DNA of 62,520 nt, the filler included, from Candidatus Methanoxibalbensis ujae (GTDB lineage Archaea > Halobacteriota > Syntropharchaeia > Alkanophagales > Methanospirareceae), in assembly GCA_026134085.1 (NCBI GenBank). It is 5 parts of 5 records of this genome, joined end to end, with 100 filler letters (N's around TTAATTAATTAA, not from the genome) between each part and the next. Parts side by side here need not be neighbours in the genome. Positions count along the whole stretch, not along the records: positions 14,460 to 28,770 come from JAOQIN010000044.1; 4 more parts are not named here. One strand, 5' to 3'. This document shows, in pieces, positions 14,460 to 35,100 of this stretch (the first letter of the stretch is position 1; every line of letters starts with the position of its first letter). The notes under the pieces were generated by a model that was not told the DNA's origin, made no database searches, and saw only the letters and a list, made by a program, of their open reading frames with translations. The position numbers were made by a program, and so were the translations under genes.

Positions 14460-14461
14460 AC

Positions 14462-17400
14462 GATTTATTGGATAAAGCGACTGTTGCTTTCAGTAAAGGT
14501 AACGAAACAAAGCATGTGGAATTCGATTTGACAGTTGATAAAGCAGGAAATCACTCACTTGAGGTTTGTGTTGACTGCAATGATACAGTAAAGGAGTTCA
14601 ATGAAACGAATAATTGCAGGAGTATAAATATATGTGTGCATAAAGGGAACGACTTTGCCGTCACAAATATAACATTCAAACCATCTGAGCCTCTAATAGG
14701 AGACATTATTGAAATAAATGCGACAATAGCGAACTTCGGAAATAGAGAAGGAGGCACTATCATAGAGTTTTATGATAATAAGAGCATAGAACTCAGAAGA
14801 ACAAGAGATGATTATTCCGGCGGAAGAATAATCAACGATATCATTATGATTCCTGAAGCTTTAAAAATAAGGGTTCATTTCTCGTATATCGCAGCAGACT
14901 CCTACATTAAGATTTATGAAAGAGATAATCCGATTCCAATTGCGATATATAATACTTGGTCTGATATAAGTGATAATTGGACAAAATGGTGCGATGGCGA
15001 TACAATACGCATAGAATCGCACTCTGGAGAATTCACAGTTGACAGATATGAGGCGATGCTTGCAAATGAGACTGTATATTTGAGTGCAGGAAATTCAACA
15101 AATATTTCTTCTGTCTTGAATCTGACATCGCAAGAATTCGGCTGGGTAATAAATGGAACACATAATATAACAGTAAAAGTTGACCCTTATAATCAAGTAG
15201 ATGAGTTAAATGAGGCGAATAATGCAAAAACAGTGCAGATAGATGTGAATCCTTCTCTTGATTTCGCAGTAACTAATATCTATTTCGGACCAGAAGAGCC
15301 CGTTCTTAACGACAACATTGAAATAAAAGCAAACATAACTAACTTCGGTAATAGAAGCGGGAAAACTTTCGTGGAAGTTTATTATGATAACAGAACCATA
15401 GGACTTGAAAGAGAAATAAGCGGTGAAGGTAATTCCACAGATGTTATTTCACTCCCGCCGGGCGTTACCGGTGCAAGACTTCATTTCAAGCGTGTTCAGG
15501 TAGGCTCTTACGGCTATATTCGTATATATGACGAAAATGGGAATTTAGTTGAGAATATCAAAGAAAAAGGCTGGACTGACTACATATACAGCAAAAATAT
15601 TACAATAAATGCGGAATGCTGGCTTAATACAGAGTCCATTGCATTCAAAATTGATAAATACGAAGCATTGATTGCAAATGAGTCTGTGATATTAAATGCA
15701 TCGGAATCGAAAAATGTCACCGCATCGTGGAACGCGACCACACTTTACGGAGGTGCAGGTCCTCATAATATAACCGTCCGCATTGACCCGCATGATGTAT
15801 TCGCTGAGAAAAACGAAATGAACAACATATTAATCAAGCGAATATTCGTTAATGGCACAGATTTGGCGGTTACAAACATAGACATTCCGCATGAAAACCT
15901 TTTTGCTGGACTGAATGTGAATATTACCGCAACAATAGCCAATCTTGGTGCGATTGATGCGCACAATTTCTCCGTATTCTTCAGGTATAGAGATCAAAGA
16001 AACAACAGTTACGTTGTTTTCAACACCACAAACATATATTATCTGCCAGCTGGCAACTCAACAAATATCACGGTGTCATGGAAACCGCCAGAAAGAGGTT
16101 TTTATACGATAAACGTGAGTGTTACTTTTGTTCCTCTTGTCGACAATGATGAAACGAACAATATGAAGTCCGAAAATATCACTGATCAGGTATACCCGGG
16201 TTGGGACTTCTCAATTGAGAATGTCAGTGTTTATCCTGAAAAAGTGCGAGAAGGTGAAAATGTGACAATAGTAGCAACAGTAGGCAATCCTGGGCTCGTA
16301 AGTGAGAATGTAAGCGTTGGATTCTTCGTGAACTACACAGATTTCGCCGCTGGAGATGAACGATTTGAGCGGATTGGCACTGTTAATGTGTTCGTCCCCG
16401 TTAACAAAACAACTAATATCTCGTTCAACTGGACTGCAAACGTTCATGGCGGCGACCATCTGATAGTGGCTGTGGTGGACCCTGATGACGAATTTGACGA
16501 ATCAAAATATGAGAAGGATAGCGACACGATGAAGGATAGCGATACGATGACAAGCGAAGGTGGTTCCATTTATTTCAGGGGTGAATTTGTCAGAAATAAT
16601 GTGAGGAATACCACATTACATATAATTCCACCTGATTTGAACATATTAAACCTCTCTATAAACCCATCAGCACCAAATATCGGAGACACCGTGAATATAA
16701 CTGTGGAAATAAGAAACAACGGGAACACGACAGCGAACAGCACTGTTTGGTTCTATGTGAAAAGAGATGTATCCGTTCATGGTGAAACAGGATTCACATG
16801 GTCGCTGTGGCGACCAGAAAATGCCAAGATGAGGGTCCATTTTGATTTCATAAATATAACTTTTAAAGAAGGTAAAGGGGTTGTAAATGCGTATAATGAG
16901 AACAAAGAACCTGTGTGCTTTTATGTCACAGAAGGAAAAGGAGCAAATGCGCAAGCAGTAAAAGTGTTCAATATAAAATCTTCATCTACCAATGAATCTA
17001 CACCAGGCTATAGCTCCTGCTGGCACATAACATGCCTCAAGAACGAAGAATGTAAATGTTGGAGATGGCATTGGTCAATTTGTAATTGCACAAATGACAG
17101 TCTTGTTGATCAAAAGCGCTGGCAAAATATCTGGACTGATTGGTGCGATGACAAAAAACTTGAAGTAAATGCAAAAGGCCATGATTACAACACACAGAAT
17201 TGTAAGAATCTTCTAGGTGTGGAGTTTCTGATAGATGAATACCAGTTCCTTCTTGGTAATAAGACCGTGACGCTGAAACCTGGCGAATCAAAGCTATGCA
17301 ATTTCTCCTGGAACATCAATTTCCCTTTGGAAGCGAAAGCAGCAGGTAAGAATTACACATTCATGGCATTCGTGGAAAATGAACATGTAGAAAAAGAGAC

Positions 17401-20400
17401 GCATATAGGTGGAACTGACCTTGGAGTTGTGAACATTTCCATAGAACCTTTTGTTGGGAGAGTGGAGGATGGAATAATTGTTTGGGACAGCAACATCGTG
17501 CGTATAAACGCAACAATAAAAAATTTTGGCTCCATGAATGCATCTGACTTCAACGTATCCTTCTACGAGTCTGCTTCATCTTGTAAATTGCTTGGAACCA
17601 AACATATTGAAGAACTTCCAGTCGGTAATTCCATAACTATTTCGTTTACGTGGAATGCAAGCATTCGGTATACGGAAAAGAAAATAAACACCTATGAAAT
17701 AAATATAACAATTGACTCAAATAAAAATCATGAGGAAGATTATAAGAACAATACCTTTTCACAGAATGTGAATGTGCGTGAATCTCGTGATTTCTTCGTG
17801 TCAAATCTTTCCTTTTCAGTAAATAATGAAACAATCAGACCCGATTCTTCAGGTAAAATATGGTTAAACCTTTATGATAACGTGACTTTGAATGCCATCA
17901 TTAACATAACAAACTATGCGAATCAGGGAGGCACTGTGAATGTCAGCTTCTATCTTGATGACAAAGAACATGAGATAGGTAGCAGAACTGTTATTTTCGG
18001 TCCCGGTTATGGAAATAGGACGATATATACGGAAACAAGATGTGTGAACATTTCGTGGAAGCCAGAAGTCATAGGCGAGCATAACATAACTGTGGTTGTG
18101 GATTCGCTGGAGAAAATATACGAAATAAACGAAAGCAACAACACATACACACAGCCCATTCATATCCGTGCGTCAGACCTTGTGGTAGAAAACCTGAATG
18201 TCAATCCGAAAATTCTCAATCGGTGTGAGAATGCTTACATCAATGTCACGATTGCGAACCGTGGAAAGTTGAACGAGAGCAATGTCACCCTTGTCATTTA
18301 CGACTGCGCGCGGCGACATGTAGAAGATTTATCATTAAATGAAAGATATTGTGGGTTCTCTACGATAGCAGTAGAGCGTGAGAATGCGACTGCAATGCGA
18401 CTGTATCTTGACCTCGCAATAGAAGGAGGGGAAGTTTGCATTTATGATAGTAAGGGCAGAGAGGTAGAATGCTATGATCACAGTTTCCACGGCTGGACGC
18501 CCTGGATATTGGGAAATAAAAGTGTGGTGAAGACGATAAAAGAGAATGTTTATGCGAAGGTCAGCAAGGTTTATTACTTAGAAGAAAGCAGTGAAATTTT
18601 CATGGCTTCTATCCCAAAACTCAATATTAACGAGACAGTGAATATTTCCGCCAACTGGACGGCATCCTCATGTGGAGAACGGTTCATCATAGCAATTATT
18701 GACCCTGAAAATTCCGTTCCGGAATACAACGAATCAAATAATAACTTGGCACAGTTTATAACTGTGCAAACTGCCGACCTTAAAGTTTGCAATATCTCCT
18801 TCAGATGGCTCAACGGCTCACAAATAAGCGAGAAAGAAACAATAAAACACGGCGATAATCTCACAATAACCGCAAATGTAACAAATATAGGTGTAGAAAA
18901 TGCCAGTGAGTTCTATATACGATTCCTCGTTGATGATATGCCTATCAAAAACGAGACAATACAGGGTTTGGCAAAAGGGTCAATAATATCGGTAAATGCC
19001 AACTGGACTGCGATTGTCGGCGAGCATGTGATAAAGGTGGAAGCTGATTACGGGGATAGAATAGATGAGACCAACAAAACAAACAATATAGAAGCGAAGG
19101 AAATATATGTTTCCGGTGCTGAAGTTACCGGAAGCACATCTTGGGAAACCTTAGGACTTCATGGTGATATATTGTTTGAACCCACGCAGCCTTATGACGA
19201 GGATACCGTGAACATCACCGTGAACATCACCAATATTGGATGTTTGAACGCAACAGATTTCAATGTGCTTCTGTTCTATGATTATTCGCCAGACCATTGG
19301 GAAACCTATCCCGGTCATTCAACTGATGGTTGGGTTTGGGTGAATAAGACATATCCCGGCGCTAATCTGGTATATCTCCGTATAATAGACCGTGCCAAGA
19401 AGGAATATATTCGTACGCCGTATGGAGATGAAATTTGGCGATGGAACCCTCTTGATCCCGATGATGTGGAAGTGTATGATGCGGAGGGCAATGCTGTATT
19501 AAATATATCAAATTTCAATGATGTATGTAATTGGGCTCAGATGTTGGATTACAAGGAATGCTGGATTCCAGTGCAAGGTGATACGGCAAATGTTAAAGTT
19601 TATGGCGGATTATGGGAAGACTTTATCATTTTCTTCTATCCTGTCCATCAGAATGGCATCTCGATGTTATATGAAGGGATTAATGTGCCCATAAATAGTT
19701 CGGTAAATCTCACTCCTCCGATGCAAACAGAGGTCAGAGCAGGCGATTTCAAGGTCATCGCGGTAATAGACCCTGAGAATAAAGTGCCTGAAGATGACAA
19801 AGCTGACAATATCATATCACGAACAATACATGTGAAACCCACAAGGGACTTCACGGTATTAAATGTAACTGCGGATAATGTGCTATCAGACACGGATACC
19901 ACGAACATAACCGCAGAGGTGGCAAACCTTGGACTGCGGAACGGAACTGCGGAGGTGAGCTTTGTGGATTACGAAACTGAAAATTGCACATACAGATATC
20001 ATTTCAATAAACGCCTCCCACATTCTTATTTGCCGATACCTCCTGATGCATGCTATCTCGGACCTGAAACCCCTCATTGGATACATTTTACGAATCTGAC
20101 GATTATTCATCGCCCGGGTGTGGATGCAATACAACTCCATTTCAATCAGATAAATCTTCTCAAAGATGATAATGCAATAGGTGCAATAGGGATTTATAAT
20201 GGAACAGGTAATAGGATATGGTATAGAGAGTATGATAAATATCATTGTCACTGGGAAAATTATAATATCACGGTGCCGGGGGATACCGTTTACATTTATA
20301 ATAATAGCCTTGCGACGTTCTCGCTCAGCGGATATGAGACAAAAAAAGTAATTTACAAAGAGAATGTGCATTTGAACGCAACAAAAACATGGAACGAAAC

Positions 20401-23400
20401 GAAGAACATCACCACAAAATGGCTCGCAACCACTGGGAATCATTTTATTAACGTTACTGTGTGGAACGAAACGATAAAAGAGATAAACGAGTCAAACAAT
20501 TCTTTTGTTCTCCATTTGAATGTGAATGCTTCACGAGACCCTACGATTGAAAACATCACATTTAATCCTCTGCATCCAAAAGACGGAGATGATGTGACAA
20601 TTACCGCAATAGTGAGGAATAACGGCACGAAAACTGCAACTTTCATGGTTGATTTGTGGCTTAACCTCACGAGGAACTCATCAATTGCTCCAGTTCCTGA
20701 TGCTGACTGGGCAATTCATCATAAAAAAGGAAACAGAACATCTTATATAATACATTTAAAACGCGAGAATGTCACGCTGGGTCCGGGCAAGAACGGGAGT
20801 GTGAGTGCAGTATGGCATAACATAAGCATTGAAGGCGACCCCAATTATGAGGTGATAGCGATTGTTGACCCTCTTGATTGTATAGATGAGATAAACAACA
20901 GTCAGAGCGACAACGATATGCGTAAAGAAATAAAGATGAACTATCCGGACCTTACAGCGACAAAATTCATTTCGCCTTCAAGAGAAGATAGGAACGCTTC
21001 GGTTGTTATCGCAAATACGGGTGTAAAGAATGCATCAAATGTCACTGTGAGGTTTGAGGTGAGTGAGTATCAAGAAACAGAAATAACAGGGAGCAAAACG
21101 GGCATGCGATGCATAAAAAAAGAAGGCGCAAAGAATATACGTGTTCATTTCAAGTGGCTTGATGCAAGTGACAAAGGTCGCCTTGAGATAAGAAAGAACA
21201 AGACGGATGATGTGCCTGTGAAGGTATATTATGATGAAGAGTTTTGTGGATGGTCTCCATGGATTGACGGAGACAGAATTTGGCTCGTTTACTCACTCTC
21301 AGGTAGAAGAAGCTTCAAAATAGATGCGATAGAGTGGGGCGAAATTATTGAGGAAAATATAAATACGATAGAAGCGGGTGAAAGTGTTAAAATACGCATT
21401 CCTCCGAGGTGGGGAGACCCCGAAAATTACACACAACCCCGCAGACTGAAAGTAATTGTTGACCCTTATAATAACATAACTGAATTGAGAGAGGATAATA
21501 ACAGCAGGACTGGGACGATATATATTGATCTCATGTTAGTGGAGTACAAGAAAAAAGTAGGGAGAAAAGAGGAAGAAGGAAAAATACACTTTGTCTCGCC
21601 AAGTAAAGACTTCCTGTGTGTGCTCGCAGAGGAGTTTGAGATCAGTGCTAAGATCAAGAACAATAATGAGATAGAAGGCATAGTGTTCCCGGTAAGTGAT
21701 TTCAATATTACGCTTGAGGTAAGGGATGATAATGGCACTGTTGTTTTCAGGAAATCGAAGAACTATCAGGATTTTTCGCCGAAGAATAAAACGCTATATG
21801 CAGGAGAAGAAGAGGAGATAACATTTATTGAGAAATCTATTTTTGGAAAACCATTTTCTGAAGATTATAAGTATTTCAATGTTTCGATAATCGTGGATTC
21901 TGAGAACGACATAAATGAGGCAAATGAATTTTATGGAGGCGGTGAAGGGAATAATATGGCACAGGAAACTCCAAATGTTTGGTCTGGTAGTGGATATATG
22001 GGTGGCGATTTATACGAAATTACTCCTTTGGATAATAAAATTTATGGTGATATATTGTTTTCAATTGGAAATAGTGCATATAGAGAGGGCAATATTAAGT
22101 TCAGTGATATTCAAATTCCGAATAGCGTGAATATAAAACTGGCTCGACTTTATCTTTACTGGGTTTGGTCAAAAGATGAATTCCCGAATGTGGATATGAA
22201 GTTCAATGATGTGGATTTATCGCCTGATGAAAGATATTCTCAGCGACCTAAGGCCAGCGCGCATGATCACTGGTATGGAACGTATGCATATGATGTAACA
22301 GATATTGTTAATGACGCTGCTGGACAGGGAGATAGCTACGAGGCAACCGCAACGATAGATGAAGGATATTTATCAGGTATGCTTCTTCTGGTTGTGTATG
22401 AGGACGACTCCAAGCCACTTATTAAATATTGGATAAATGAGGGTGCGGAGTTGATGATGGCTAAAAATAAGGAGTGGCCAACTGGTCTTGGGTTTGATCA
22501 GTGCATTGCGAAAGCTTCTTTTGTGGGTGATGTGGATATAAGTAAGGTGAGTAAAGCGGAATTGTTGACAGTTATACCTTCATGGAAAGTAGAAGACTTA
22601 AGTGATGATGTAACGATAGGAGACGCACTCATGTTTAACGGTTGGAATGTAGGCACACCTAGAGGTAAAAGCTATTGGAAATATGAAGGAGAAGACTGTA
22701 TGGCACTTACCGCAAATCATTGGGAGGACGTTACTAATTATTTAGAATCAACAAATAACAAAGCGGAGATACAGAGCAAAGGTAATTTCATGATGGCAAC
22801 GAATGCGGTTTTAAAGGTCACATACCTGCCTGACCTGACAGTTTCATTTGAAAGCGCTCCTTCATCTGTGAAAGCAGGCACAACCCAAACAATAAAAGTG
22901 AGAGTGAGTAACCTGGGAGAGAGCAAAGCAGAGAACTTTGTCGTGAGATTGAATGCAAGCAAAGGAACGCCTTCTGAGCAAACAATAGAACTGCTGAACG
23001 GGACATACGAAGGAAATAACACCGTTACGGTGGATTTCAAGTGGACTGCTCCGAAATTAGCGATGCCATCATCAGGATACATACAAAGAGTGGAGGAAAA
23101 TGTGAATATATCTGTTGAAGTTGACCCCTCCAATAAGATTGAGGAGCTGAATGAGAACAATAATGCGGATGATGTAACTGTGACGGTGTGGGATGTCCTC
23201 ACGAGGAATCCTGAGTTGAGACCGCCGGGGGGCAGAGGAGCAGGAGGAGGCACTGGCACAGGCTTCGGAACTGGAAACAGATCTGGTAGGGAAGCAGTTG
23301 CATTCGGCGGCGCCCCTGCTGAATCGGAAGAGGCGGGAAAAGGTAAGGAGGTAAAGGTGAAAAAAGAGAGAGCTCATGAAACACTCTGGGGCTATCTTTT

Positions 23401-23578
23401 GAACAAAATGATTGTGCCTGGTGAGGAAAAAGCAGGAGGCTCTTCGGGATTCTCACTGTGGGAATATCTCATTAAAGTTTCCGCTTTCCTCATCGGTGTT
23501 GCTTTCCTCGTTCTCGGCTATTTATTTGAGAGAAGGAGGCACAATGCCAATGCAGCGAAGCATGTGAGAAAAGAATGA
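14462..23578 (+). CDS. Giant cell-surface glycoprotein: ~15 CARDB (Ig-like) modules, DUF3344-like domain and C-terminal TM anchor; 5'-truncated
   Basis: Frame is open to the linker. Repeated VDPxNxxxExNExNN motifs, DUF3344-like block (ARLYLYWVW…YGTYAYDVT…LLVVYED…WINEG), many NxS/T sequons, and a TM helix followed by ERRR. Confidence 0.85.
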   Translation, partial: DLLDKATVAFSKGNETKHVEFDLTVDKAGNHSLEVCVDCNDTVKEFNETNNCRSINICVHKGNDFAVTNITFKPSEPLIGDIIEINATIANFGNREGGTIIEFYDNKSIELRRTRDDYSGGRIINDIIMIPEALKIRVHFSYIAADSYIKIYERDNPIPIAIYNTWSDISDNWTKWCDGDTIRIESHSGEFTVDRYEAMLANETVYLSAGNSTNISSVLNLTSQEFGWVINGTHNITVKVDPYNQVDELNEANNAKTVQIDVNPSLDFAVTNIYFGPEEPVLNDNIEIKANITNFGNRSGKTFVEVYYDNRTIGLEREISGEGNSTDVISLPPGVTGARLHFKRVQVGSYGYIRIYDENGNLVENIKEKGWTDYIYSKNITINAECWLNTESIAFKIDKYEALIANESVILNASESKNVTASWNATTLYGGAGPHNITVRIDPHDVFAEKNEMNNILIKRIFVNGTDLAVTNIDIPHENLFAGLNVNITATIANLGAIDAHNFSVFFRYRDQRNNSYVVFNTTNIYYLPAGNSTNITVSWKPPERGFYTINVSVTFVPLVDNDETNNMKSENITDQVYPGWDFSIENVSVYPEKVREGENVTIVATVGNPGLVSENVSVGFFVNYTDFAAGDERFERIGTVNVFVPVNKTTNISFNWTANVHGGDHLIVAVVDPDDEFDESKYEKDSDTMKDSDTMTSEGGSIYFRGEFVRNNVRNTTLHIIPPDLNILNLSINPSAPNIGDTVNITVEIRNNGNTTANSTVWFYVKRDVSVHGETGFTWSLWRPENAKMRVHFDFINITFKEGKGVVNAYNENKEPVCFYVTEGKGANAQAVKVFNIKSSSTNESTPGYSSCWHITCLKNEECKCWRWHWSICNCTNDSLVDQKRWQNIWTDWCDDKKLEVNAKGHDYNTQNCKNLLGVEFLIDEYQFLLGNKTVTLKPGESKLCNFSWNINFPLEAKAAGKNYTFMAFVENEHVEKETHIGGTDLGVVNISIEPFVGRVEDGIIVWDSNIVRINATIKNFGSMNASDFNVSFYESASSCKLLGTKHIEELPVGNSITISFTWNASIRYTEKKINTYEINITIDSNKNHEEDYKNNTFSQNVNVRESRDFFVSNLSFSVNNETIRPDSSGKIWLNLYDNVTLNAIINITNYANQGGTVNVSFYLDDKEHEIGSRTVIFGPGYGNRTIYTETRCVNISWKPEVIGEHNITVVVDSLEKIYEINESNNTYTQPIHIRASDLVVENLNVNPKILNRCENAYINVTIANRGKLNESNVTLVIYDCARRHVEDLSLNERYCGFSTIAVERENATAMRLYLDLAIEGGEVCIYDSKGREVECYDHSFHGWTPWILGNKSVVKTIKENVYAKVSKVYYLEESSEIFMASIPKLNINETVNISANWTASSCGERFIIAIIDPENSVPEYNESNNNLAQFITVQTADLKVCNISFRWLNGSQISEKETIKHGDNLTITANVTNIGVENASEFYIRFLVDDMPIKNETIQGLAKGSIISVNANWTAIVGEHVIKVEADYGDRIDETNKTNNIEAKEIYVSGAEVTGSTSWETLGLHGDILFEPTQPYDEDTVNITVNITNIGCLNATDFNVLLFYDYSPDHWETYPGHSTDGWVWVNKTYPGANLVYLRIIDRAKKEYIRTPYGDEIWRWNPLDPDDVEVYDAEGNAVLNISNFNDVCNWAQMLDYKECWIPVQGDTANVKVYGGLWEDFIIFFYPVHQNGISMLYEGINVPINSSVNLTPPMQTEVRAGDFKVIAVIDPENKVPEDDKADNIISRTIHVKPTRDFTVLNVTADNVLSDTDTTNITAEVANLGLRNGTAEVSFVDYETENCTYRYHFNKRLPHSYLPIPPDACYLGPETPHWIHFTNLTIIHRPGVDAIQLHFNQINLLKDDNAIGAIGIYNGTGNRIWYREYDKYHCHWENYNITVPGDTVYIYNNSLATFSLSGYETKKVIYKENVHLNATKTWNETKNITTKWLATTGNHFINVTVWNETIKEINESNNSFVLHLNVNASRDPTIENITFNPLHPKDGDDVTITAIVRNNGTKTATFMVDLWLNLTRNSSIAPVPDADWAIHHKKGNRTSYIIHLKRENVTLGPGKNGSVSAVWHNISIEGDPNYEVIAIVDPLDCIDEINNSQSDNDMRKEIKMNYPDLTATKFISPSREDRNASVVIANTGVKNASNVTVRFEVSEYQETEITGSKTGMRCIKKEGAKNIRVHFKWLDASDKGRLEIRKNKTDDVPVKVYYDEEFCGWSPWIDGDRIWLVYSLSGRRSFKIDAIEWGEIIEENINTIEAGESVKIRIPPRWGDPENYTQPRRLKVIVDPYNNITELREDNNSRTGTIYIDLMLVEYKKKVGRKEEEGKIHFVSPSKDFLCVLAEEFEISAKIKNNNEIEGIVFPVSDFNITLEVRDDNGTVVFRKSKNYQDFSPKNKTLYAGEEEEITFIEKSIFGKPFSEDYKYFNVSIIVDSENDINEANEFYGGGEGNNMAQETPNVWSGSGYMGGDLYEITPLDNKIYGDILFSIGNSAYREGNIKFSDIQIPNSVNIKLARLYLYWVWSKDEFPNVDMKFNDVDLSPDERYSQRPKASAHDHWYGTYAYDVTDIVNDAAGQGDSYEATATIDEGYLSGMLLLVVYEDDSKPLIKYWINEGAELMMAKNKEWPTGLGFDQCIAKASFVGDVDISKVSKAELLTVIPSWKVEDLSDDVTIGDALMFNGWNVGTPRGKSYWKYEGEDCMALTANHWEDVTNYLESTNNKAEIQSKGNFMMATNAVLKVTYLPDLTVSFESAPSSVKAGTTQTIKVRVSNLGESKAENFVVRLNASKGTPSEQTIELLNGTYEGNNTVTVDFKWTAPKLAMPSSGYIQRVEENVNISVEVDPSNKIEELNENNNADDVTVTVWDVLTRNPELRPPGGRGAGGGTGTGFGTGNRSGREAVAFGGAPAESEEAGKGKEVKVKKERAHETLWGYLLNKMIVPGEEKAGGSSGFSLWEYLIKVSAFLIGVAFLVLGYLFERRRHNANAAKHVRKE

Positions 23579-23608
23579 AAGAGTAGAGGTGAAGAGAGGT
23601 GAAGCGGG

Positions 23609-24286
23609 ATGGTATGGTTTGAGGCGCTGAAAGGCACAATAACTGCACTGCAAAACATAATATATCTCATTTCCAATGCACTGCTTATCCCGGTAATGGC
23701 ATTGCTTGTCGGCGGTGTGGCAGTCTCCCTCTTTGAACTCGGCAGATTCGTGTATGAGTTCATTCAGCGAAGGAGACATCCGAGCAGAATAGATGAAATA
23801 GCGTGGATTTTTTGTGAAAAGGCAACTGAAGAAAGCAAAGTTAAGAGTGGCGAGGAACTTTCAGAAGCGCTGAGAATTATCCGCTCAAAGGGTTCAAGCA
23901 GACTCGTCCACGATTTCATAAATGATTTGGAGCGGTTGAGGGGTATCCGTGATGAGCGCATTTTGAAAGTGCAAGTGGAGAAGCTGATCCAGGATTACGA
24001 GGAGAAAGCGGCGAAGCGGACGGAAATAACGAGGATTCTTGTCCGGGTGGGACCTATGCTCGGGCTTATGGGAACACTTATTCCGATGGGACCTGCGCTT
24101 CTCGCACTCTCTCAGGGAGATGTGGTGACGCTTGCCAACAATTTAATCATCGCTTTCGGCACGACAGTTCTTGGATTGCTGATCGGTGGCGTCGCTTACA
24201 TGATGACGGAGGTGCGAAACCGCTGGTATGACAGGGATTTGCGCGATATTGCATATATCTGCGAGGTGCTGTTCGGGGAAGAATAA
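23609..24286 (+). CDS. MotA/TolQ/ExbB proton-channel family protein (HmuU-like)
   Basis: RVGPMLGLMGTLIPMGPAL…IIAFGTTVLGL signature and three TM segments. Confidence 0.92.
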   Translation: MVWFEALKGTITALQNIIYLISNALLIPVMALLVGGVAVSLFELGRFVYEFIQRRRHPSRIDEIAWIFCEKATEESKVKSGEELSEALRIIRSKGSSRLVHDFINDLERLRGIRDERILKVQVEKLIQDYEEKAAKRTEITRILVRVGPMLGLMGTLIPMGPALLALSQGDVVTLANNLIIAFGTTVLGLLIGGVAYMMTEVRNRWYDRDLRDIAYICEVLFGEE

Positions 24287-24336
24287 AAAGAGGGAAAGGT
24301 AAAGATAGGAGAAAAAGGGAGGGAGGTGATGGATTG

Positions 24337-24723
24337 ATGAGATATATGCGTGACAGAGGAGGAAACAGGAAAAGAAATGCAAGGAGTGCAGGAGGTGCTG
24401 GTGGAAGGAGGAGGGATGCGGACGAGCCTCTGACAGGTGTTGCAAACTTATTTGATGTTGCGATGGTATTCGCACTCGGCTTGATGGTCGTTATTCTTAT
24501 GTATTACAACCTTCAAGAGCTGTTGAAGCCGCAAGATGTGACCATCGTGAAAAATCCAGGACAGAAAAACATGGAAATAATTGTGAAACATGGAAAGAAA
24601 ATAGAGCGATTGAACATGACTAACCAGACAGTGCAGGCGGAAATTCTTGGAGAATGGGCAAGAATATATGAAACGAGGGGTGGTGGCAAAATCCTTGTGC
24701 CTACAAATGAGAGTAAGAGATGA
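24337..24723 (+). CDS. DUF2149 family protein (ExbD/MotB-like, HmuV-like)
   Basis: EPLTGVANLFDVAMVFA and VTIVKNPGQKNMEIIVKHGKKIER. SD GGAGGTGA at 24322. Confidence 0.9.
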   Translation: MRYMRDRGGNRKRNARSAGGAGGRRRDADEPLTGVANLFDVAMVFALGLMVVILMYYNLQELLKPQDVTIVKNPGQKNMEIIVKHGKKIERLNMTNQTVQAEILGEWARIYETRGGGKILVPTNESKR

Positions 24724-25238
24724 GAGAGTGAGAAATGAGAGTGGGATCCCATCTCAAAAAGAAATAAAATGCAGGAATGTTGAGCTCCGATAGCTCTGAA
24801 CTGTCATCCACGCCGCCTGTGACAGTTGCGCATGTCTCACCCAATCTCAAACATCAGGGAGACTCAACCCGAAAGAGGAGAAATTGAGTTTGAACTTAAT
24901 ATGCAGGTCGTCAAAATCGTAACAGTGAAGGTTTGATAAGTTTCTTTCTCAATTTTTTAATACTATAACTTTACTATTCCTACATTATTGAACGATTTGA
25001 AGATAAAATTATTTCTGATGGAATGAATGCTCAATTCTTCTTTGAAGCTAGTTAAGCAGCTCTCACCGCTATTTGGTTTACTTGTTAAGAAAAAACAGAA
25101 TATAAATAAGGAACTAATACATGTGTAATAAGCACATATAAGCACAGCGGGTTTGTTTTCCCGCATGCAGCGGGATGATACCTCAAGACCTCAATGAGGG
25201 GCTGCTGCGGAATGCGGAAGGGCACAGTTGCCGCCTGC

Positions 25239-25919
25239 TCACCTGCGACGAAATGCATAAAGCAAAACTGCGAAAATGACGAATGCGAATGTGAGTTCAA
25301 ATCCCGGAACACTTGGCGCTCCCGGACTCTTTTGCGGCGTATTTGTGGGATGCTCGCTGACAGTGGGTGCAGGTGTTTCAGGAGTCTCAGGAGTTTCTTC
25401 TGGCATCTGCTTCGGAGTTTCTGTGGGCATATGCGGCGAAGGCATGGATGCGGTTGTCGGATATCCAGCGCTCTTCCATGCGTTTATTCCTCCCTCAAGA
25501 TTGAACACATTGTAACCATATTGTGTGAGGATTTCGCATGCCCGCCTGCTTCCTGAACCACTCCTGCAATAAACAATTATCATCTTTGATCTGTTTATTT
25601 TCTTCTCAACATCCTCCTCGGACATCAGCTCCAGCTCTGATATCGGTATGTTCAACGATTCCACACCTTCCAATGATATATGCTCATTTTCATGCTCTGA
25701 TTTCGTCCTTACATCAATCAGAATCGTCTCAGATGGCGCATCCGTCAGCATCTCATGTGCTTTGTCCGCATCTATATACATGCATCCATCCCCCCCCGGA
25801 GGCATGGGCGGAATTGGCAGTGGCTCCTCCGCTGCAGCGCCGCATCCAGCATACGCCACAATGCTCAACACGAACACGATAAGCAGTCCTTCCCTCAATC
25901 TCAGTCTCATCAGTCTCAT
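25239..25919 (-). CDS. Secreted rhodanese-domain protein with PGF-CTERM anchor
   Basis: Signal peptide, LIDVRT, YCRSGSGS, NLEGGINAW, Pro/Thr/Glu linker and VPGF+TM+RRR. Confidence 0.88.
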   Translation of the reverse strand: MRLMRLRLREGLLIVFVLSIVAYAGCGAAAEEPLPIPPMPPGGDGCMYIDADKAHEMLTDAPSETILIDVRTKSEHENEHISLEGVESLNIPISELELMSEEDVEKKINRSKMIIVYCRSGSGSRRACEILTQYGYNVFNLEGGINAWKSAGYPTTASMPSPHMPTETPKQMPEETPETPETPAPTVSEHPTNTPQKSPGAPSVPGFELTFAFVIFAVLLYAFRRR

Positions 25920-26008
25920 ATTCCATGAGAAATGGAGAAGAAGAAAAAAAGCTTTCGCTCATGGCAGAAAGAAAATGAAAAGAAGTCAGAAAGAGAAAAC
26001 AGAACAAC

Positions 26009-26848
26009 ATGCATTCAGCAGCTGACACGCATGTATTGGAACTGCTCGGAAGGACGAGAGTCGTCATTGAGCGCGGTGAAGTTGTTGAAGTAGGCGAGCC
26101 GATTGTGAGATATTGCCCGCTATGGGAGAAGCTTGGAATAAAAACGATAGACAGGAACATCGTGAGGGAGAGAGTGGAATTTCAGATGAGAGATTTCGGT
26201 CTTTGTTCTGCAAATCGGAAACTTGATCTCGGAGTTTTTGTGGATTTTGGAGCATCTGAAACGCTTATGACCGCGCTTCGCGCACGCATTTTGGACGCTG
26301 TCGTGTCTGTTTGTGATGGTGCTGGAACTGTTATCACATCAAATCCCTCACTTGTGCAGGGTATCGGTGCGAGGATAAGCGGGATCATTGAGACCTCACC
26401 TATTGATGCAGTTCTGAGGAAACTCAGATCGCTCGGCGGCTTTTTGCTGTCTCCACCGCGCATCTCTCAGGTTGATGGCTTGAAATTCGCAATGGATGAG
26501 CTCGGCTTCTCACGCGTCGGCGTCACTGTTGCCTCTGTTGAAGATGCTGAAATGTGCAGGGATCTGAGTGAAAATGCCGTCATATTTGCGGTACATCTCA
26601 CCGGAATATCCGAAGACGATGCAGCAAGACTGTGTGAGGTTGCGGATGTCGTCACTGCATGCGCATCCGCAGCAATACGAAAGGAAGCGATGAGAAAAGC
26701 GCTGATTCAGGCGGGAATTTCAGTTCCTGTGTTCGCAATCTCGCCAGCCGGCAGGGAAATGCTGATTGAGCGTGTGAGGGAAATGCGAAAATCTGTCGTC
26801 ATAAGCACAGCAACACCTCATGGAAAACATCCCATACCTCTCATATGA
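26009..26848 (+). CDS. Methanogenesis marker protein 8 (DUF2099)
   Basis: HVLELLGRTRVVI…EP…YCPL, FGASE, VCDGAGTV…LVQGIGARISG and ACAS. Confidence 0.88.
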   Translation: MHSAADTHVLELLGRTRVVIERGEVVEVGEPIVRYCPLWEKLGIKTIDRNIVRERVEFQMRDFGLCSANRKLDLGVFVDFGASETLMTALRARILDAVVSVCDGAGTVITSNPSLVQGIGARISGIIETSPIDAVLRKLRSLGGFLLSPPRISQVDGLKFAMDELGFSRVGVTVASVEDAEMCRDLSENAVIFAVHLTGISEDDAARLCEVADVVTACASAAIRKEAMRKALIQAGISVPVFAISPAGREMLIERVREMRKSVVISTATPHGKHPIPLI

Positions 26849-26917
26849 GGCTTATGATGCTCTCATATTGCTCTCATATGATGCATCCTGCCATGCATTC
26901 TGCAACCCTCATCTTCT

Positions 26918-27757
26918 TCATTTTCCACCACCGGCGCTTTGATGAGTGCGGCGAAGCGGAAGCACAAACAGCTTTCCGGTGACCTCGTTTCTGCCTATTA
27001 TCACATCAACACCAAACACTTTCCGTATGTTATCCGCTGTAACAACATCTTCAGGTCTCCCAATAGCAACGATTTTCCCCCTGTCAATCATTATAAGCCT
27101 GTCACAAAAAAGAAGTGCGATGTTGAGATCGTGTATGGCTGCTATGACAACAATGCCCTTCCAGGTCAGTTCACGCAGTATTTCCATTATCTCAATCTGA
27201 TAGTTTATGTCAAGATGAGCGGTGGGTTCGTCAAGCAGCAGTATCTTGGGCTGTTGGGCAAGCGCTCTCGCAATCATCACACGCTGCCGCTCGCCACCAC
27301 TCAGCTCGTTTATCTTGCGAGATGAAAACTCAAGACATTTGGTCATTCGCATGCATTCCTCCGCTATCTCTATGTCGCGGCGGGATTCAAGCGCAAACCT
27401 GCTCGTGAGATGCGGATTCCTGCCCATCAGAACAATGTCAAGCACAGTGAAATCAAATGATATGTGCGTGTCCTGAGGAACAAAAGCACATATCTTCGCA
27501 AGCTCTTTGTGGCTGAAATCTGAAATATCTCGGTTGTAAAAGAGAATTTTGCCAAATTTTGGCTTCAATATGCGAGCAAGCACCCTCAGTAATGTCGTTT
27601 TTCCTGAGCCATTCGGTCCTATGATTCCTATAAACTCTCCTTTTTCAGCGCTGAATCTCACACGATCAAGCACTTTCTTGAAATAATATGCATCAACATC
27701 ATTCACTTCAACCGCAGGCAACTCCTCCTCAGCAGGCAACTCCTCCTCGGCGCTCAT
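26918..27757 (-). CDS. ABC transporter ATP-binding subunit, iron-siderophore/heme/cobalamin type
   Basis: GPNGSGKTT, VPQ, MGRNPH, LSGGERQRV, LLDEPTAHLD and HDLN. Start taken at MSAEEELP (27757). Confidence 0.9.
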   Translation of the reverse strand: MSAEEELPAEEELPAVEVNDVDAYYFKKVLDRVRFSAEKGEFIGIIGPNGSGKTTLLRVLARILKPKFGKILFYNRDISDFSHKELAKICAFVPQDTHISFDFTVLDIVLMGRNPHLTSRFALESRRDIEIAEECMRMTKCLEFSSRKINELSGGERQRVMIARALAQQPKILLLDEPTAHLDINYQIEIMEILRELTWKGIVVIAAIHDLNIALLFCDRLIMIDRGKIVAIGRPEDVVTADNIRKVFGVDVIIGRNEVTGKLFVLPLRRTHQSAGGGK

Positions 27758-28034
27758 ATCCGAACTCTTGCCACATTGCTCATTCCATTGTCCGCTCCGC
27801 CGCAGTGACATACTCAACGATGACATCATAGGTGCCAAAACGAAAAGCATTGCGGTGAGCTGCTCGGTGCCGCTCGTTATCCTCATCTGAGAGTAACGAT
27901 GCCATATAGGGATAGACACTGCGCTGACTTCATGTCTTACTAATAGAAGATAAATAATAAAATAGCGGTATATTAATAAGAAAAAGTTATTGATAAAAAG
28001 CGTGTTCATAAACATCAAACAAAATAAATAATGA

Positions 28035-28625
28035 AAGACTATCAACCTCTTTTATGGTGACGGTATAGCGGAAAACTGATTGAGTTACTGAATGAATTTG
28101 ACATTGAAAAGAATAAGATATAGAGGGCGGCGATAGCGATGTATTTCTTCAAGCTTTAGATAGCACTAACTCTCAACATCTACTGTTACTGGATAGAGAG
28201 GTTCAAAGGCGTCTGAAGGGAAAGAGGTCAAAATTGTAATATCAAGATGTTGATGAAACAATTTGTACAATAAGAAGTGTTATCTCTTCGCTTCTCTGGA
28301 CATAGAAAGGAATAAAATCATCCAGATGGTTTATCAGGGAATGCATTGACAGCCTATTCCTTAAGTGCTTAGTGAGAGGTTGAAGAAACCATTCTTGATA
28401 AAGGGCCATGGTGCAAAGACGCTCTAAATAGTTTAGGTATTAAATGACATGAAAGCATTTGAGAAAGGAGCCTGGTTGAGTCTTCAGCTCTTTCAAACAG
28501 GGAGCCGAGATTTTTTTGCTCCATAACAGTCAAGGAAGAGAGAGGAGGAGTTTGGAAGTTTGAGGTGCTATGGCTGGAACATGTTCTGCAGGATGTTCGC
28601 TCAACATGGTGAGGCGGTGTTATTA
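28035..28625 (+). mobile_element. Heavily degraded IS6-family transposase relic
   Basis: Frameshifted fragments KLIELLNEFDI, VDET, CYLFASLDIE, ILDKGPW.KDALNSLGIK and ERSLVES match archaeal IS6 DDE motifs. TIRs not clearly recognisable. Confidence 0.7.
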
Positions 28626-28770
28626 GTTTTTTATAAAAATAAGTAATAATAAAATAAAATAATAAAAATAAAAAATAATAAAAAAATAAAGTCATATCAG
28701 CTCTATATAACCGACGGAAGCCTTCAGGATCAGGAGGACATCACCTGCATCTGCGAGTTTTCCGTTGTTG

Positions 28771-29184: not shown

Positions 29185-32100
29185 ATGAGGGGGAAGGAAG
29201 ATGGCGGGGTAAAAAGGCATGTCTCAATCTTTGTTTTTTTAAGTATCGCTTTCTGCCTCATATTTTGTATGGGCACGGTCAGTGCAGCCCCTTCTATCGT
29301 GGCATGGTCTTCCTCTGGGGGAAACCCAACAAATAAAGACAATCCCCAAGATTTGATGTATCTTGTCAAACCAGGAGATGTCATTACTTTTGAAATCGCC
29401 ACTTCTGAACCTTGCAGTTATAACTGGTCTGTTAACAAAGTTGACCAGGGCATAAATTCAAACACATTTACCTTTACAGTCCCTTCTCTCAACTGCTCTC
29501 AAGATCCTTCAGAATGCATCTGGGAAATCCATGTCAAAGCCTATAATGATAATGGAGAAGCTCATCAGGAATGGGTTATTTCCACTTTAAATGAGTCAGA
29601 GGCGCCAGATATATTTGATTACTTCACAGATAAAAAATATCAAAGCAGAACAGAAACAGATCCCTGGGGTAGAGCGTTGCCTGAATGGAAATATAATTCC
29701 AAATGGGATGAACCCGATGTTTCAAATTGTGATTACCGCATTTCTGCAGATCAAGAGGCTATGTTGGCGATTTTAAATGGGCACGATGTTGCTTTTGGAA
29801 CATGGAAATTCAGATTTTATATTCCACCGAATGAACCACGCGATCCGCAAGGAATCTCATATATTGATTATCATTTCCTAAAACTCAAATCTGGAGATAC
29901 CTTTAAATTCCGAGCCTCTTCTGAAAGCCATTGGTTTTTCTATCATCATAATGTAAATGGTACAGCAGCAACAATTATGATAGATCAAAACTCTGCCATA
30001 ATGAGGCCTTTTGACGATTTTTATGAAGGGAAAATTATAAGAATGCCAGACGGCACTATCTATCTGTATCTAAATGATGTTTTAGCTTGGTACTGGCAGG
30101 AAGCCGCGGGAGGAAATGAGACTTCAAGAGAGGAGGATTGGGATACGTTCTCTATATATTTGGATCAATCAAAACCAGATATGCCAGATAAATTTCCGAT
30201 TATAGATTGTATCGAAATCTATAAGAATAAGTATCTTCTCCCTTCAAAAAATGTAACTTATGGAAAATATGCAAGCAACTGGCTAAATATAGAGGAAGGT
30301 TATCCTCAAAATTATGAACCAATTAAAAGACAAGGTATTATAGTTCGTGGTAAAGGTGTAAGATTAATTGACATTTATAATATGATTGATAACGAATCAT
30401 TGTTCACCTATGACCAGAAAACAAAAACAGCAATTTGCTATACAGATCTTGTGCTTGATTATGGAGCGGAACTTATCATCGAAAATGAAACTCTAAAATT
30501 CCACTGCAATTCTCCAAGAGAGCATTGGCTTTCCATGCTTTGGGCATCCAGAATTAAAATAATAAACTCTACAATTACATCTAATAATAATAATTATTGG
30601 ATTTGGCGCTCAGATAGCACAACACACTTGGGATTTCCTGCACAATTTCTTTTAAGTCCGTATACGTATGGAGTGGCGCCTTTAGGATATGCAAGTTTAC
30701 AATCCATAATCATTGAGAATTCAACAATAGATAATACAGCTTATATGTTTCTTGATTCTTTCTTTGAATTAAAGATTAGGAACAGCAAGATTATAAACTT
30801 AAACGAAGTGGATATAGGAAATTACTCAAAATATGGAACAACAAGAGAAAGACAGCACAAGGAGTTCGTAAAAGGAAACAAATCTTTTTGGATTCTTCTT
30901 AAAGAAATTCCAGCAGTAAGATTTGAGATTGATAATGTTGTTTTTTCTGGAAAGAGTAGTCCAGTAAATATCACTTTTATCATTAATGCGGATAGAAAAA
31001 CGAAAGAAAGGGACTGGGGTCTGTTTAGATTAAATATTTATAACTCAGATTTTGGTAATGAAAACATAGTAGTTAGAAAAAGTGCAAAGTTCCATCCGAT
31101 ACATCGTCCAGATTGGCCTACTTGGTTTGAAAATATCATAGGATTGGTAAACTGCAAGTTTAAAAATCTTATTATCCTCACTGATATGAGCTATGTTATT
31201 TCGAAGTATTATCTTGATGTTAAAGTAGTAGATGATAATGGAAATCCTGTAAAAAATGCTACTGTAAGAGTAGTAAATGAAGTTGATAACCAAAATTATC
31301 CTGCTGAAAATATTGTATTTAAGCGCATTTTGCATCGTAATATTCCTGGCTGGAATCAAAATGAAGACTGGGCCTATGAAATAATCTTATATGAACCGTT
31401 AAATTACACACTAACAGGTTCTAACGGGCATACACCACTACCATCAGAAGACCCTGCTCATACTATCGTAATTGGAGATTATGTAAAAGATATCAATGGA
31501 GCAACTCAATTTACCTACACCATCACCGCCTCTTATAATGGAAAAACAGCCTCCCTTTCAGGTTTAGATATAGATGAAAGCTGGTACAGAGAGAACCCTG
31601 ATGTGCCAACAAAGACAGTTGTTTGCAATATCGATACTGGTAATTGCTGGGTAGAAGGGGTTGCAACAGGCACTCTAAAAGGCAAGGTAACAGACAAAGA
31701 CACAGGACAACCAATAGCCGGTGCCACAGTAACGGCAAACTCCCACCAAACAACAACGAACTCAACAGGAGATTACATTATTACAAACCTACTGCCAGGA
31801 AGCTACACAGTAACTGCTTCTAAGGAAGGCTATTACTCAAGCACAGCAACCGCAGAGATTTTCGCAAATCGAACAACAACTCTGAACTTCCAACTGACTA
31901 AAGTGCCTGTGGACACAACTCCGCCAGAAATCTCTGACATAAACATAAGTTCCATCACCACTCACTCGGCAGTTATTTCTTGGAAAACAAATGAACTCTC
32001 AACATCTCTCGTCAAATACGGAACATCCCCAGGCTCCTATCCTCACTCTAAGGAAGATGCCTCCTACACCACCTATCATTCAATCATACTTACTGGTCTT

Positions 32101-35100
32101 TCTCCGAATACAACCTATTACTTAGTTGTAAGTTCAACAGATAAGGCGGGAAATTCTGCTCAGAGCGATGAACAAAACTTCAAAACAAAAGAACTTTCAA
32201 ACATAGTTTATGTAGCCACAGACGGCACTGGAGATTACAACTGCGATGGCACTGATGACCAGATTGAGATAAATCAAGCAATAGCTTACATCAACAGCAT
32301 AGGCGGCGGCGTAGTTCATTTAAAGAACGGAACATTTGTTATTTCCGATTCAATAAATTTGGCTTCCAATCTCATTCTAGAGGGAGAAGGCACGGAGAAA
32401 ACAACAATAAAGATTGAAGACGGAAGCACAAAAGAGAATTGGGCCACTATCGCAGGAGACGGAATATCCTCAACAGTAATCAGAAATCTAACAATTGACG
32501 GAAATAAGGACAACTGTCCCGTTCCTAATAGAATAAACAGCGATGTTGATACCTTTCATCTCTACAACTCTGATAACATCACAGTTGAAAAGGTAAAAAT
32601 GATTGATTTCTGGACTGATGGTGTTGAATTTTCTCATTCAATCAACTCTATGGTCAAAGATTGTGAAGTTATTCAGGCGGGACATGAGGGATTGAGAGCA
32701 ATATACAGCGACAACATAACATTCTCAAACAACTATGTTTATTCAGCAGGCACTGGAAATGCCGGTATAAGAATATATGAATCCTCAAACTGCATAATAG
32801 AGAACAACTACTTCAATGTCTACGGCTTCGGCATTCTTATCAATCCGCAGGGAGGCGTTTCCTGTGGAAATAACATCTACCGGGATAATTACATAGAAGG
32901 TCACTACGGACTGCCAGGAATAGCGCTCTGGCCCTGGGATACAGAGATAAGCAACGAGACACTCATAAGAAACATCATCGCCAGGACAGACGGAACTCAA
33001 GAACCATACGGACACGGAATTCATCTCAGAACAAGGGGAACTGCAAGTCTCAAGAACATAAAGATAATAAACAATGTGATCAACAATGCTTTAAAATCTG
33101 GAATATATGTGGATGACGGTGCAAATGTGAGCAATATTGTTGCGATGAACAATATCATTGTGAACAACGGTGAATATGGCATATACGGAAATGTCCTTTC
33201 ATCATACAACGATGTGTGGAACAACAACGCTGGCAATTACGGCGGCGGTGCATCCGCTGGAAAGGGGGATATTTCCGCTGATCCTCTCTTCGCATCTCCA
33301 CCGCATGACTTCCATCTGAAATCGCAGGCGGGAAGATGGAACGGCTCTGCCCCCCGAGTGAAAGATAATGTCACATCGCCCTGCATAGATGCTGGCGTTC
33401 CTTCTGAAGAAGACCCCGTTTACGGAGACTATCGCAACGAACCACCACCGAACGGCAGCAGGATAAACATGGGTGCTTATGGGAACACGAGAGAGGCTTC
33501 CATGTCTGTTGAAATTGAAGAGAATACATACAGCATTTCAGGATATGTGAAATATGAGAACGGAACAGGTATATTCAACGCTCATGTCACAGATAACAGG
33601 ACAGGCGCGGAGGATTATACGGATAAGAAGGGATATTATGTTCTACATGGATTGACAAACGGAACTTATCTGATAACTGCGAGCGCAGGATCGCTTTCAA
33701 ATTCAATCGTCGTGACAATCGCAGGAAGAGATGTTGAGAATGCGAACATCACACTCGCCGGAGAACCTCCACAGATCATTTCGTTCTCTCCTTCAGACCT
33801 CACGCCCACTCAATATGTGAACCATACATATACATTCTCGGTCACCGTCAGTCAGCCAGTCTCAAACGCATGGTTCCTTGACGGCGAAGACCAGAACAAC
33901 AACGCTCAATCCTGGACGCACACATGGAGCGCATCGGAAGAGGGAGTGCACAATGTCACTTATTTGGGCATGAACGAGAACGGCAGCGTCTCAGTGAAAT
34001 GGACAGTTGAAGTGAAAAAGAAGAACAATCCGCCATACATATCGCCACTTGAAAATCAGACAGGCTTTGTGGGAGTGCCCTGGTCGTATGACATATCCGC
34101 TTTCGTATATGACCCCGATGGAGACCCGCTCACTGTGACCACTGATGACGAACTCAATATAACAGTTGACGGATTCGTCCTGCACTTTCTGTATTCAGCA
34201 CCTGTGTATGAAAAGCGGGTAAATGTCACAATCACCGATAGCGGAGGATTGAGCGCTACAGAAGACTTTTTCGTCACCGTGACTGAGGGGAATGTGCTTT
34301 ATGTGAGAGACACAAGCGCTCCTCCAGGCACCGTGTCAATTCCGGTTTACATTTCATGTAACATATCAACAGTCGGCATTGGATTCAAACTCTCCTACAA
34401 CAGCAGCGTTCTATCGCTGTTGACAGTTCAGAAAGGAGCTCTCCTCACAGATTCGTGGTGTGATCCCGAAATAGGTGGAGAAGAAGGGGCATATAAGATC
34501 GGTATCGTTGGCCCGGAATCAGATTCGATAGAAAATGGGACATCAGGTCCCGTCATTGTTCTGAATTTTGATGTCATCGGAAAACCGGGAGACAGAACTC
34601 CACTGAACATATCCGATGTGACTTTCGTCTTCGTCGACGGCAAAAAATACACAGAGATAAAAGGCACATCTCGTAATGCGACATTTTCAGTGGAAAATGG
34701 CGATTTCAGCAATTATGTGAGAGGCACAGTGGTATATGCATGCAACAACACGCCCATATCAGACGCATTTGTCTGTTTGAAAGGCGATGACTATGAGGAC
34801 TCAACATACACTGATGAGAACGGCATCTTCATCATATCAATACCGCCCGGCAATTACACATTAACCGCTTCAAAGGAAAGATTCATGGAAAATTCCACAG
34901 TGATTCATATGGGAGATGAGGAGGTGGTCATCATAGATATGATGCTTTACATCAAGGGAGACCTCAATAACGACGGTAATGCATCGCAAATAGGAGATGT
35001 GCAGATGATGTGGAGCGCATGGAAAAAAGAGAAGACCTCACTGCCGGATTATGTTTATGATCTGAATGGAGATGGAGACCCCGCGGATCTGGCAGATGTA

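Follow-up and report, generated by a model that had tools for sequence, protein, structure and literature searches.

What work could an ion motor of the ExbB type do in archaea, which to our knowledge have no outer-membrane receptor? The question is raised by a locus of Candidatus Methanoxibalbensis ujae, a methane-oxidising archaeon of ANME-1-like type (assembly GCA_026134085.1), found in a 62,520-nucleotide stretch of DNA, the window, in which several contigs are joined by linkers of N. The locus takes up the first 10 kb of contig C39 (JAOQIN010000044.1; window 14460-28770) and consists of three genes on the plus strand: a 5'-truncated gene for a giant secreted glycoprotein (14462..23578, 3038 codons open), one for a 225-residue subunit of the ExbB/TolQ/MotA family (23609..24286), and one for a 129-residue DUF2149 subunit (24334..24723). 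The original prediction placed three co-oriented genes here, and their reading frames, coordinates and gaps are confirmed. The gaps are 30 nt (giant to ExbB) and 47 nt (ExbB to DUF2149), each with a purine-rich sequence of Shine-Dalgarno type, and this spacing suggests that the three genes may be co-transcribed. The answer we favour, at about an even chance, is that the motor grips a short box at the base of the giant protein and pulls, most likely so as to unload some scarce metal or cofactor that has been caught extracellularly. Coupling of the giant's C-terminal tail to the motor, taken by itself, is probable. The module of motor and tail is real, conserved, and uncharacterised.

The ExbB-like protein matches MotA_ExbB (PF01618; E 1e-11, 44.6 bits against a cut-off of 22.9), and hydrophobic segments near residues 24-42, 140-168, and 179-197 give it three transmembrane (TM) helices. 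A profile of 47 such proteins matches Escherichia coli ExbB (E 3e-5). P149, T156, and T186, invariant in the 47 rows, align with P141, T148, and T181 of the E. coli protein, which are pore residues (PMC12215075; this and the other papers cited by PMC number are represented by those parts of each that were available). The DUF2149 protein (E 3e-23) has a basic N-terminus, one TM helix at residues 39-57, and a small outer domain that is predicted, at low confidence, to have five strands. All 54 aligned homologues keep its Asp41 (24454-24456, in ANLFDVAMVF). Residues expected of a motor are conserved in both subunits, which supports the original prediction of an ion motor. The two subunits correspond to HmuU and HmuV of the hmu operon in Bacteroidota; the same two Pfam families, in the same order of ExbB-like then DUF2149, occur in hmuYRSTUV and BtuS clusters (PMC10434189). 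Sequence search of the PDB gave nothing significant, and the ESM Atlas nothing beyond known DUF families.

The features that the original prediction described at the C-terminus of the giant are all present: a Gly-rich, charged, flexible linker (23222..23377), the box ETLWGYLLN (23378..23404), and, by hydropathy and alignment, a single C-terminal TM helix with an invariant G-[YF] end, followed by E-RRR, a basic cytoplasmic stop (23468..23575). Alignment with other proteins resolves these features into a tail module, composed of a low-complexity linker, a box of consensus [VI]-x-G-[YFKHR]-x-[MFL], a spacer, a TM helix with an invariant terminal Gly, and a basic stop. The box lies 15-25 residues outside the membrane, before the helix. 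The Gly that ends the helix is present in 54 of 54 rows, and the Gly of the box is kept in 50 of the 54, at 35-43 residues before it. All 77 tail matches in the loci collected here end within 22 residues of a C-terminus. Out of 1.84 billion, a 17-row profile of the tail matches 99 cluster representatives (E<=0.001), and inspection shows the C-terminal layout in nearly all of these. The tail already lies within NCBIfam model PRK05989.2-3.

The proteins that carry this tail are otherwise unrelated. Its heads include CobN-like proteins, DUF3344 giants, giants with a toroid and a propeller, beta-helix proteins, and a Peripla_BP_2 (BtuF-like) protein, encoded directly upstream of a motor in locus L223. 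Among 32 long homologues of the giant, 31 end in the tail and the exception is labelled partial. Within this genome (89% complete), the box occurs in two of the 38 secreted open reading frames (ORFs) that a hydropathy rule judges to be C-terminally anchored. One is the giant on C39, and the other is a 4404-residue giant with CARDB and toroid regions on contig C12 (G000:C12:44341-57555, minus strand), which has the same tail and no adjoining motor gene. DUF2149 is matched once in the genome, DUF3344 four times, and a single CobN is present; the C12 giant is probably a second client of the one detected motor. Bacterial motor-linked CobN-like proteins also show a box-like motif before the last helix, strong in Trichlorobacter and Runella. 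HmuS is described as having N- and C-terminal membrane helices (PMC12583661, PMC13227078); we find a box-like G-x-x-[ML] before the C-terminal one, in the form G-x-V-[ML]-K in Bacteroides and Prevotella. Of 30 C-termini of motor-linked CobN/HmuS proteins, 25 have the pattern G-x-x-[MFL] 15-26 residues before the helix, whereas 2000 shuffles give 1.4 +/- 1.1; these C-termini were not picked by the tail profile, although the pattern was fitted after the alignment had been viewed and many rows are near kin. Because the motif is common to unrelated nutrient-capturing proteins, HmuS of gut bacteria among them, the tail is likely the handle through which the predicted motor pulls on extracellular proteins. 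Separately, the smallest client seen is in L223 (879-9096), where CobN, radical SAM, and tail-bearing BtuF-like genes precede ExbB and DUF2149.

Across genomes the tail co-occurs with the motor. DUF2149 is present in 37 of 61 relatives and in 83 of 251 genomes of the phylum. At E<=1e-5 the tail profile matches 78 of the 83 DUF2149-positive genomes and none of the 168 negative ones, and with 12 training genomes dropped the positive count is 66 of 71. A 54-row profile, applied to the 61 relatives, matches 32 of 37 DUF2149-positive genomes versus 1 of 24 negative. Eight genomes encode DUF3344 without DUF2149; the tail occurs in one, which is 61% complete. Because kin are not independent, these counts are to be read as patterns and not as tests of significance.

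The proposed linkage of the motor to giants recurs, with tail-anchored giants as partners, in other ANME-1, in ANME-2, and in alkane-oxidising archaea. The exact gene order is found again in an independent metagenome contig (L231), in L093, where the giant is frameshifted, and in Candidatus Syntrophoarchaeum butanivorans (L117). Four contexts were seen: DUF2162-ExbB-DUF2149 with a gene for a secreted CobN-like protein; a giant directly upstream of ExbB, often with a BtuF-like PGF-CTERM protein and a PF01902 ATPase following; a beta-helix protein with DUF2162; and longer forms of ExbB with a DUF3344 giant one gene downstream. For 72 ExbB genes in 80 loci, a tail-bearing gene lies directly upstream in 27 and within 3.5 kb in 22, while flanks are short in 17 and the rule finds no tail gene in 6; many rows of this count had trained the tail profile. 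BtuF-like, FeoA, and radical SAM genes lie downstream of many giant-linked motors, and many related loci are flanked by genes of metal or corrinoid uptake, which supports the original prediction. We favour capture of a metal or cofactor because of these flanking genes and the HmuS-like and BtuF-like heads, and not because of anything in the present locus.

In a quick ExbB tree, whose long bacterial branches are unreliable, the tandem paralogues of four loci cluster according to the type of their partner, whatever the genome, and giant-linked motors stand apart from archaeal CobN-linked ones on a branch marked 98* that also holds three long-branch bacterial rows. Some loci deserve separate mention. 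Five (L039, L106, L110, L132, L140) have two tandem motors; both adjoin a tail-bearing beta-helix protein of their own, and DUF2162 accompanies the second. Six DUF3344-giant loci (L122, L147, L154, L160, L119, L127) have a conserved gene for a secreted BatD/DUF11-like protein of 510-550 residues directly after DUF2149. A Runella plasmid (L174:1743-16001) carries the motor and a CobN-like gene among the hydrogenase maturation genes hypABFCDE, which hints at nickel as a cargo. Loci L243 and L244 share an inverted repeat, with AAAACCGTG arms, some 270-340 nt upstream of ExbB, a possible operator.

How the motor might act on the giant can be set out in steps, the first of which is the invariant Thr, Thr, and Asp of the motor. 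By analogy with ExbBD, TolQR, and MotAB, five ExbB-like subunits would ring two DUF2149 helices, a 5:2 assembly in which flux of H+ or Na+ would turn the dimer. The outer beta domains of that dimer may bind the box, which would supply a strand for the grip, much as the ExbD dimer binds the D-box of TonB. The tail helix would dock on the ring, so that rotation would put tension on the Gly-rich linker, and the client would serve as its own TonB, in a reversed orientation with the N-terminus out and the C-terminus in. Tension on the membrane-proximal head, here DUF3344, would then free a ligand to ABC importers of BtuF type. We regard DUF3344 as a candidate ligand-binding head; with one Ig unit between it and the linker, it would be the first part to feel a pull, and a long stalk lies beyond it. 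The same tail stands on several unrelated heads, and this genome pairs one detected motor with two tail-bearing giants (C39 and C12).

Binding of the box was addressed by predicting a complex of two DUF2149 outer domains with a 36-residue box segment, alongside three controls, with the hypothesis set down beforehand. The ipSAE score was 0.36, versus 0.00 for the best of the three controls; the runs agreed in at least 71% of contacts, and partner pLDDT was at least 49. The mark used for such complexes is reached by 116 of 157 solved pairs and 2 of 215 mismatched pairs. At scores of 0.60 or less it is reached by 18 of the 157 solved pairs and by both mismatches, so a score of 0.36 is weak support for binding of the box by a DUF2149 dimer. 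The original prediction that the motor acts on the giant thus gains in part: the co-occurrence of tail and motor across genomes speaks for it, as does, weakly, this structural score.

Several observations weigh against the mechanism as drawn. The complex prediction was a weak pass from which no interface was obtained. The tail helix has no His and no SHLS motif, and is oriented opposite to that of TonB. A DUF2149 profile did not match the one ExbD sequence it was compared with. Folds similar to the DUF2149 model were sought and none was found at E<=0.001 (best Z 3.4, to plain helices), although the low confidence of the model, all-beta with five strands (pTM 0.31), means that these searches leave room for a domain of ExbD type. 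The proposal that DUF2149 is ExbD- or MotB-like therefore stands for the invariant Asp in the TM helix, and homology beyond it is not supported; given the low-confidence fold and the missing profile match, DUF2149 would work like ExbD by position and Asp only. In the sister giants, the toroid has its matches in the repeats of squalene cyclase and prenyltransferase. DUF3344 is similar to jelly rolls that bind carbohydrate, is also found in genomes without the motor, and forms an ambiguous cluster in a screen for fibrillar adhesins (PMC9210967). As to the co-occurrence, the tail profiles and the box pattern were built from motor-adjacent proteins, and the association is partly operon co-inheritance among kin. 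No tail match was found in 5 of the 83 DUF2149-positive genomes, and weak matches appear in DUF2149-negative ones, six at E<=1e-3 and twenty at 1e-2. Eight loci of full or near-full DUF3344 giants (L209, L210, L212, L214-L218) show the tail and no motor gene in the DNA examined; DUF2149 is present elsewhere in those genomes, and coupling there must be in trans. Nothing consistent by way of a shared NikR-like or palindromic operator was found, by the pattern used, in 23 upstream regions of related genes.

The alternative that survives best, though unlikely, agrees that the tail engages the motor and assigns the energy to the biogenesis of very large proteins, which would be threaded, unfolded, positioned, or shed through an S-layer or sheath irrespective of the function of their heads. 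Most clients are indeed very large (1300-4700 residues) with unrelated heads, and the motor subfamilies track partner type. However, clients of 543-663 residues bear the tail too, it is absent from other large secreted proteins encoded here, and periplasmic HmuS has the box yet crosses no outer layer.

Less likely still is that the giant is an adhesin binding glycan or mineral, and that the motor pulls it in or puts it under tension so as to keep hold of partner bacteria or particles, or senses such contact through it. The protein matches CARDB in 11 stretches (E 2e-124) and DUF3344 once (E 1e-41). It comprises about 13-15 CARDB Ig-like units, six with a CUB-like insert, and has 134 N-glycosylation sequons and no CxxCH. 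We presume the CUB label from a sequence motif and from PF00431 (CUB) matches in 2 of 32 homologues of the giant. The long Ig stalk, the inserts, and the sequons would suit an adhesin, as would the DUF3344 domain (21992..22819), which is modelled as two jelly rolls (pLDDT 90, pTM 0.89). Its fold matches, weak to middling with a best Z of 7.0, are PNGase F, double-jelly-roll capsids, and carbohydrate-binding modules; the ambiguous placing in the adhesin screen also fits. The fold searches gave no tetrapyrrole-binding match to this double jelly roll, and the tetrapyrrole ligand first proposed for the giant is not upheld. Against an adhesin, operons of metal uptake encode enzymes and binding proteins with the same tail, and DUF3344 adjoins the membrane and is not at the tip, a single CARDB unit separating it from the linker.

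Least likely of all is that the ExbB-like pair serves as a channel or as an accessory to a permease, in line with proposals for HmuTUV, with the tail a mere membrane anchor inherited with the operon: reviews suggest that HmuT, HmuU, and HmuV aid transfer of haem or iron across the inner membrane and call the roles unclear (PMC12094164), kin share operons, and the box-DUF2149 complex drew weak support, but a box standing 15-25 residues clear of the membrane is conserved in archaea, Bacteroidota, and Proteobacteria alike, and is kept on motor-unlinked genes in motor-bearing genomes only. Of the 54 tails, moreover, at most 2 were matched by any one sorting-signal family of NCBIfam.

Comparison with known systems helps to place the reading we prefer, in which the motor pulls on the client by its tail. 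Relative to hmu, the present locus has no CobN/HmuS, no DUF2162 (HmuT-like), and no TonB-dependent receptor, and the partner is a DUF3344/CARDB giant. No linked CobN/HmuS or DUF2162 lies on contig C39; DUF2162 had no match in the genome in a search with one query protein, and the one CobN of the genome, on C1, is cytoplasmic, without signal or tail. TonB-ExbB-ExbD and TolA-TolQ-TolR are alike in their ExbB homology, with equivalents of P141, T148, and T181, in the TM Asp of the small subunit, and in a short conserved box that a short linker separates from the one TM helix, comparable to the D-box that the dimer of ExbD captures (PMC10907165, PMC12215075). They differ in that here the transducer would be the client's own C-terminal tail, of opposite orientation and without the SHLS motif, and the outer domain of DUF2149 is predicted all-beta with no profile match to ExbD. 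The motor is of HmuU/HmuV type and falls outside the Ton system; it likely operates as Ton does, the tail of the client itself serving as transducer. Methanosarcinales and other methanogens have extracellular CobN-like proteins (BtuS) that share the tail and the motor families; unlike this locus they have an enzyme head in place of DUF3344, and DUF2162 is present. The BtuS proteins of M. barkeri respond to the Fe/S source (PMC10846266), in the available part of which their tail and motor are not discussed. PGF-CTERM, PEF-CTERM, and GlyGly-CTERM signals resemble the tail in having a C-terminal motif, a TM helix, and a basic stop. In contrast to the archaeal CTERM signals, the motif of the tail lies 15-25 residues before the helix, its distribution tracks DUF2149, and no sorting-signal family of NCBIfam is significant against the 54 tails (best E 0.008-0.1, in one or two members).

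In the literature, DUF2149 of methanogens is listed as a membrane protein linked to TolQ (PMC9425974). HmuU and HmuV are drawn as powering HmuR, the use of archaeal homologues being called unclear (PMC12583661), and are elsewhere called uncharacterised (PMC13227078, PMC12094164). Partial Ton systems of single-membrane bacteria are considered likely non-functional in one survey (PMC12204202). We found no paper describing the archaeal system or the box of HmuS in a search that covered few subscription papers and no supplements, where HmuS alignments could show the box. The main text of PMC9012536, searched by term, does not mention CARDB, ExbB, TolQ, adhesin, cobN, or chelatase.

Somewhat short of an even chance attaches to the broadest proposal, that the portable C-terminal box and helix, at work in archaea and bacteria, would add a third kind to the force transducers of 5:2 ion motors, one by which any surface protein is its own TonB. 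ExbB-type motors have been studied in double-membrane bacteria, and an archaeal motor with such a handle would do ion-powered mechanical work on the archaeal surface. If the tail is a handle, cells with a single membrane could put ion motive force to use outside the cell, and HmuU/HmuV would be the engine of the haem de-chelatase HmuS and not the helper of an outer-membrane receptor. The same reading addresses the role of archaeal CobN/HmuS homologues, would mark the 3000-4700-residue surface proteins of ANME as energised devices, and may bear on the need of purified HmuS for the membrane fraction (PMC13227078).

The remaining observations concern details of the genes and their surroundings. 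The frame of the giant is open from the edge of contig C39. Its start codon, signal peptide, and promoter are missing from the window because its 5' end falls at that edge. It aligns from residue 670 of the 3675-residue orthologue P0220, so that about 670 residues are missing, and a search across the genome gave no matching contig end. Orthologues are mostly 3000-3900 residues long, and the named homologues point towards Methanophagales/ANME-1. A promoter and terminator scan built for bacterial signals gave chance-level results. A transcobalamin-like reading of the sister giants' toroid found no support in two PDB searches, with no transcobalamin among 54 matches.

The link to an Fe/B12-type ABC ATPase advanced in the original prediction is not supported, and on present evidence the ATPase is rejected as a member of the system. 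The BtuD/FecE-like gene (26918-28045, minus strand) lies on the opposite strand, two genes from the motor; no permease ORF stands between it and the contig end, and the 10 kb downstream of the motor in L093, the closest orthologous one, contain no such gene. Its true start is probably about 100 codons after the listed one.

Variants of the motor subunits were also seen. ExbB-like proteins with C-terminal extensions of 200-400 residues (L112:8717-9970, L115, L116, L147, L234:437-2302) add either an extra TM hairpin and a small domain or a PsbP-like domain. In three low-GC loci (L271, L287, L283), DUF2149 is divergent (NLVD) and the box takes a variant form, K-S-Y-E-V, which is carried by CobN-like and FmdE-domain proteins. 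An apparent natural ExbB-DUF2149 fusion in L056 was rejected as an upstream in-frame extension over a real ExbB gene.

Among the giants, L077 (2156-14337) encodes a near-identical tandem pair, of which one member has a cohesin-dockerin end and its neighbour the motor tail. Duplicated tail fragments lie downstream of DUF3344 giants in L211 (2365-6416) and L214 (9131-10979), the former beside a transposase that we take to be IS66-like. Elsewhere in the window, contig C40 encodes (29185-35142, plus strand) a 1985-residue secreted protein without the tail, which has beta-helix, FN3, and carboxypeptidase-regulatory-like regions and a dockerin-like end. Convergent on the motor genes is a gene (25239-25919, minus strand) for a secreted rhodanese-domain protein with a PGF-CTERM-like end, and a rhodanese-domain protein is also encoded downstream of the motor in L093.

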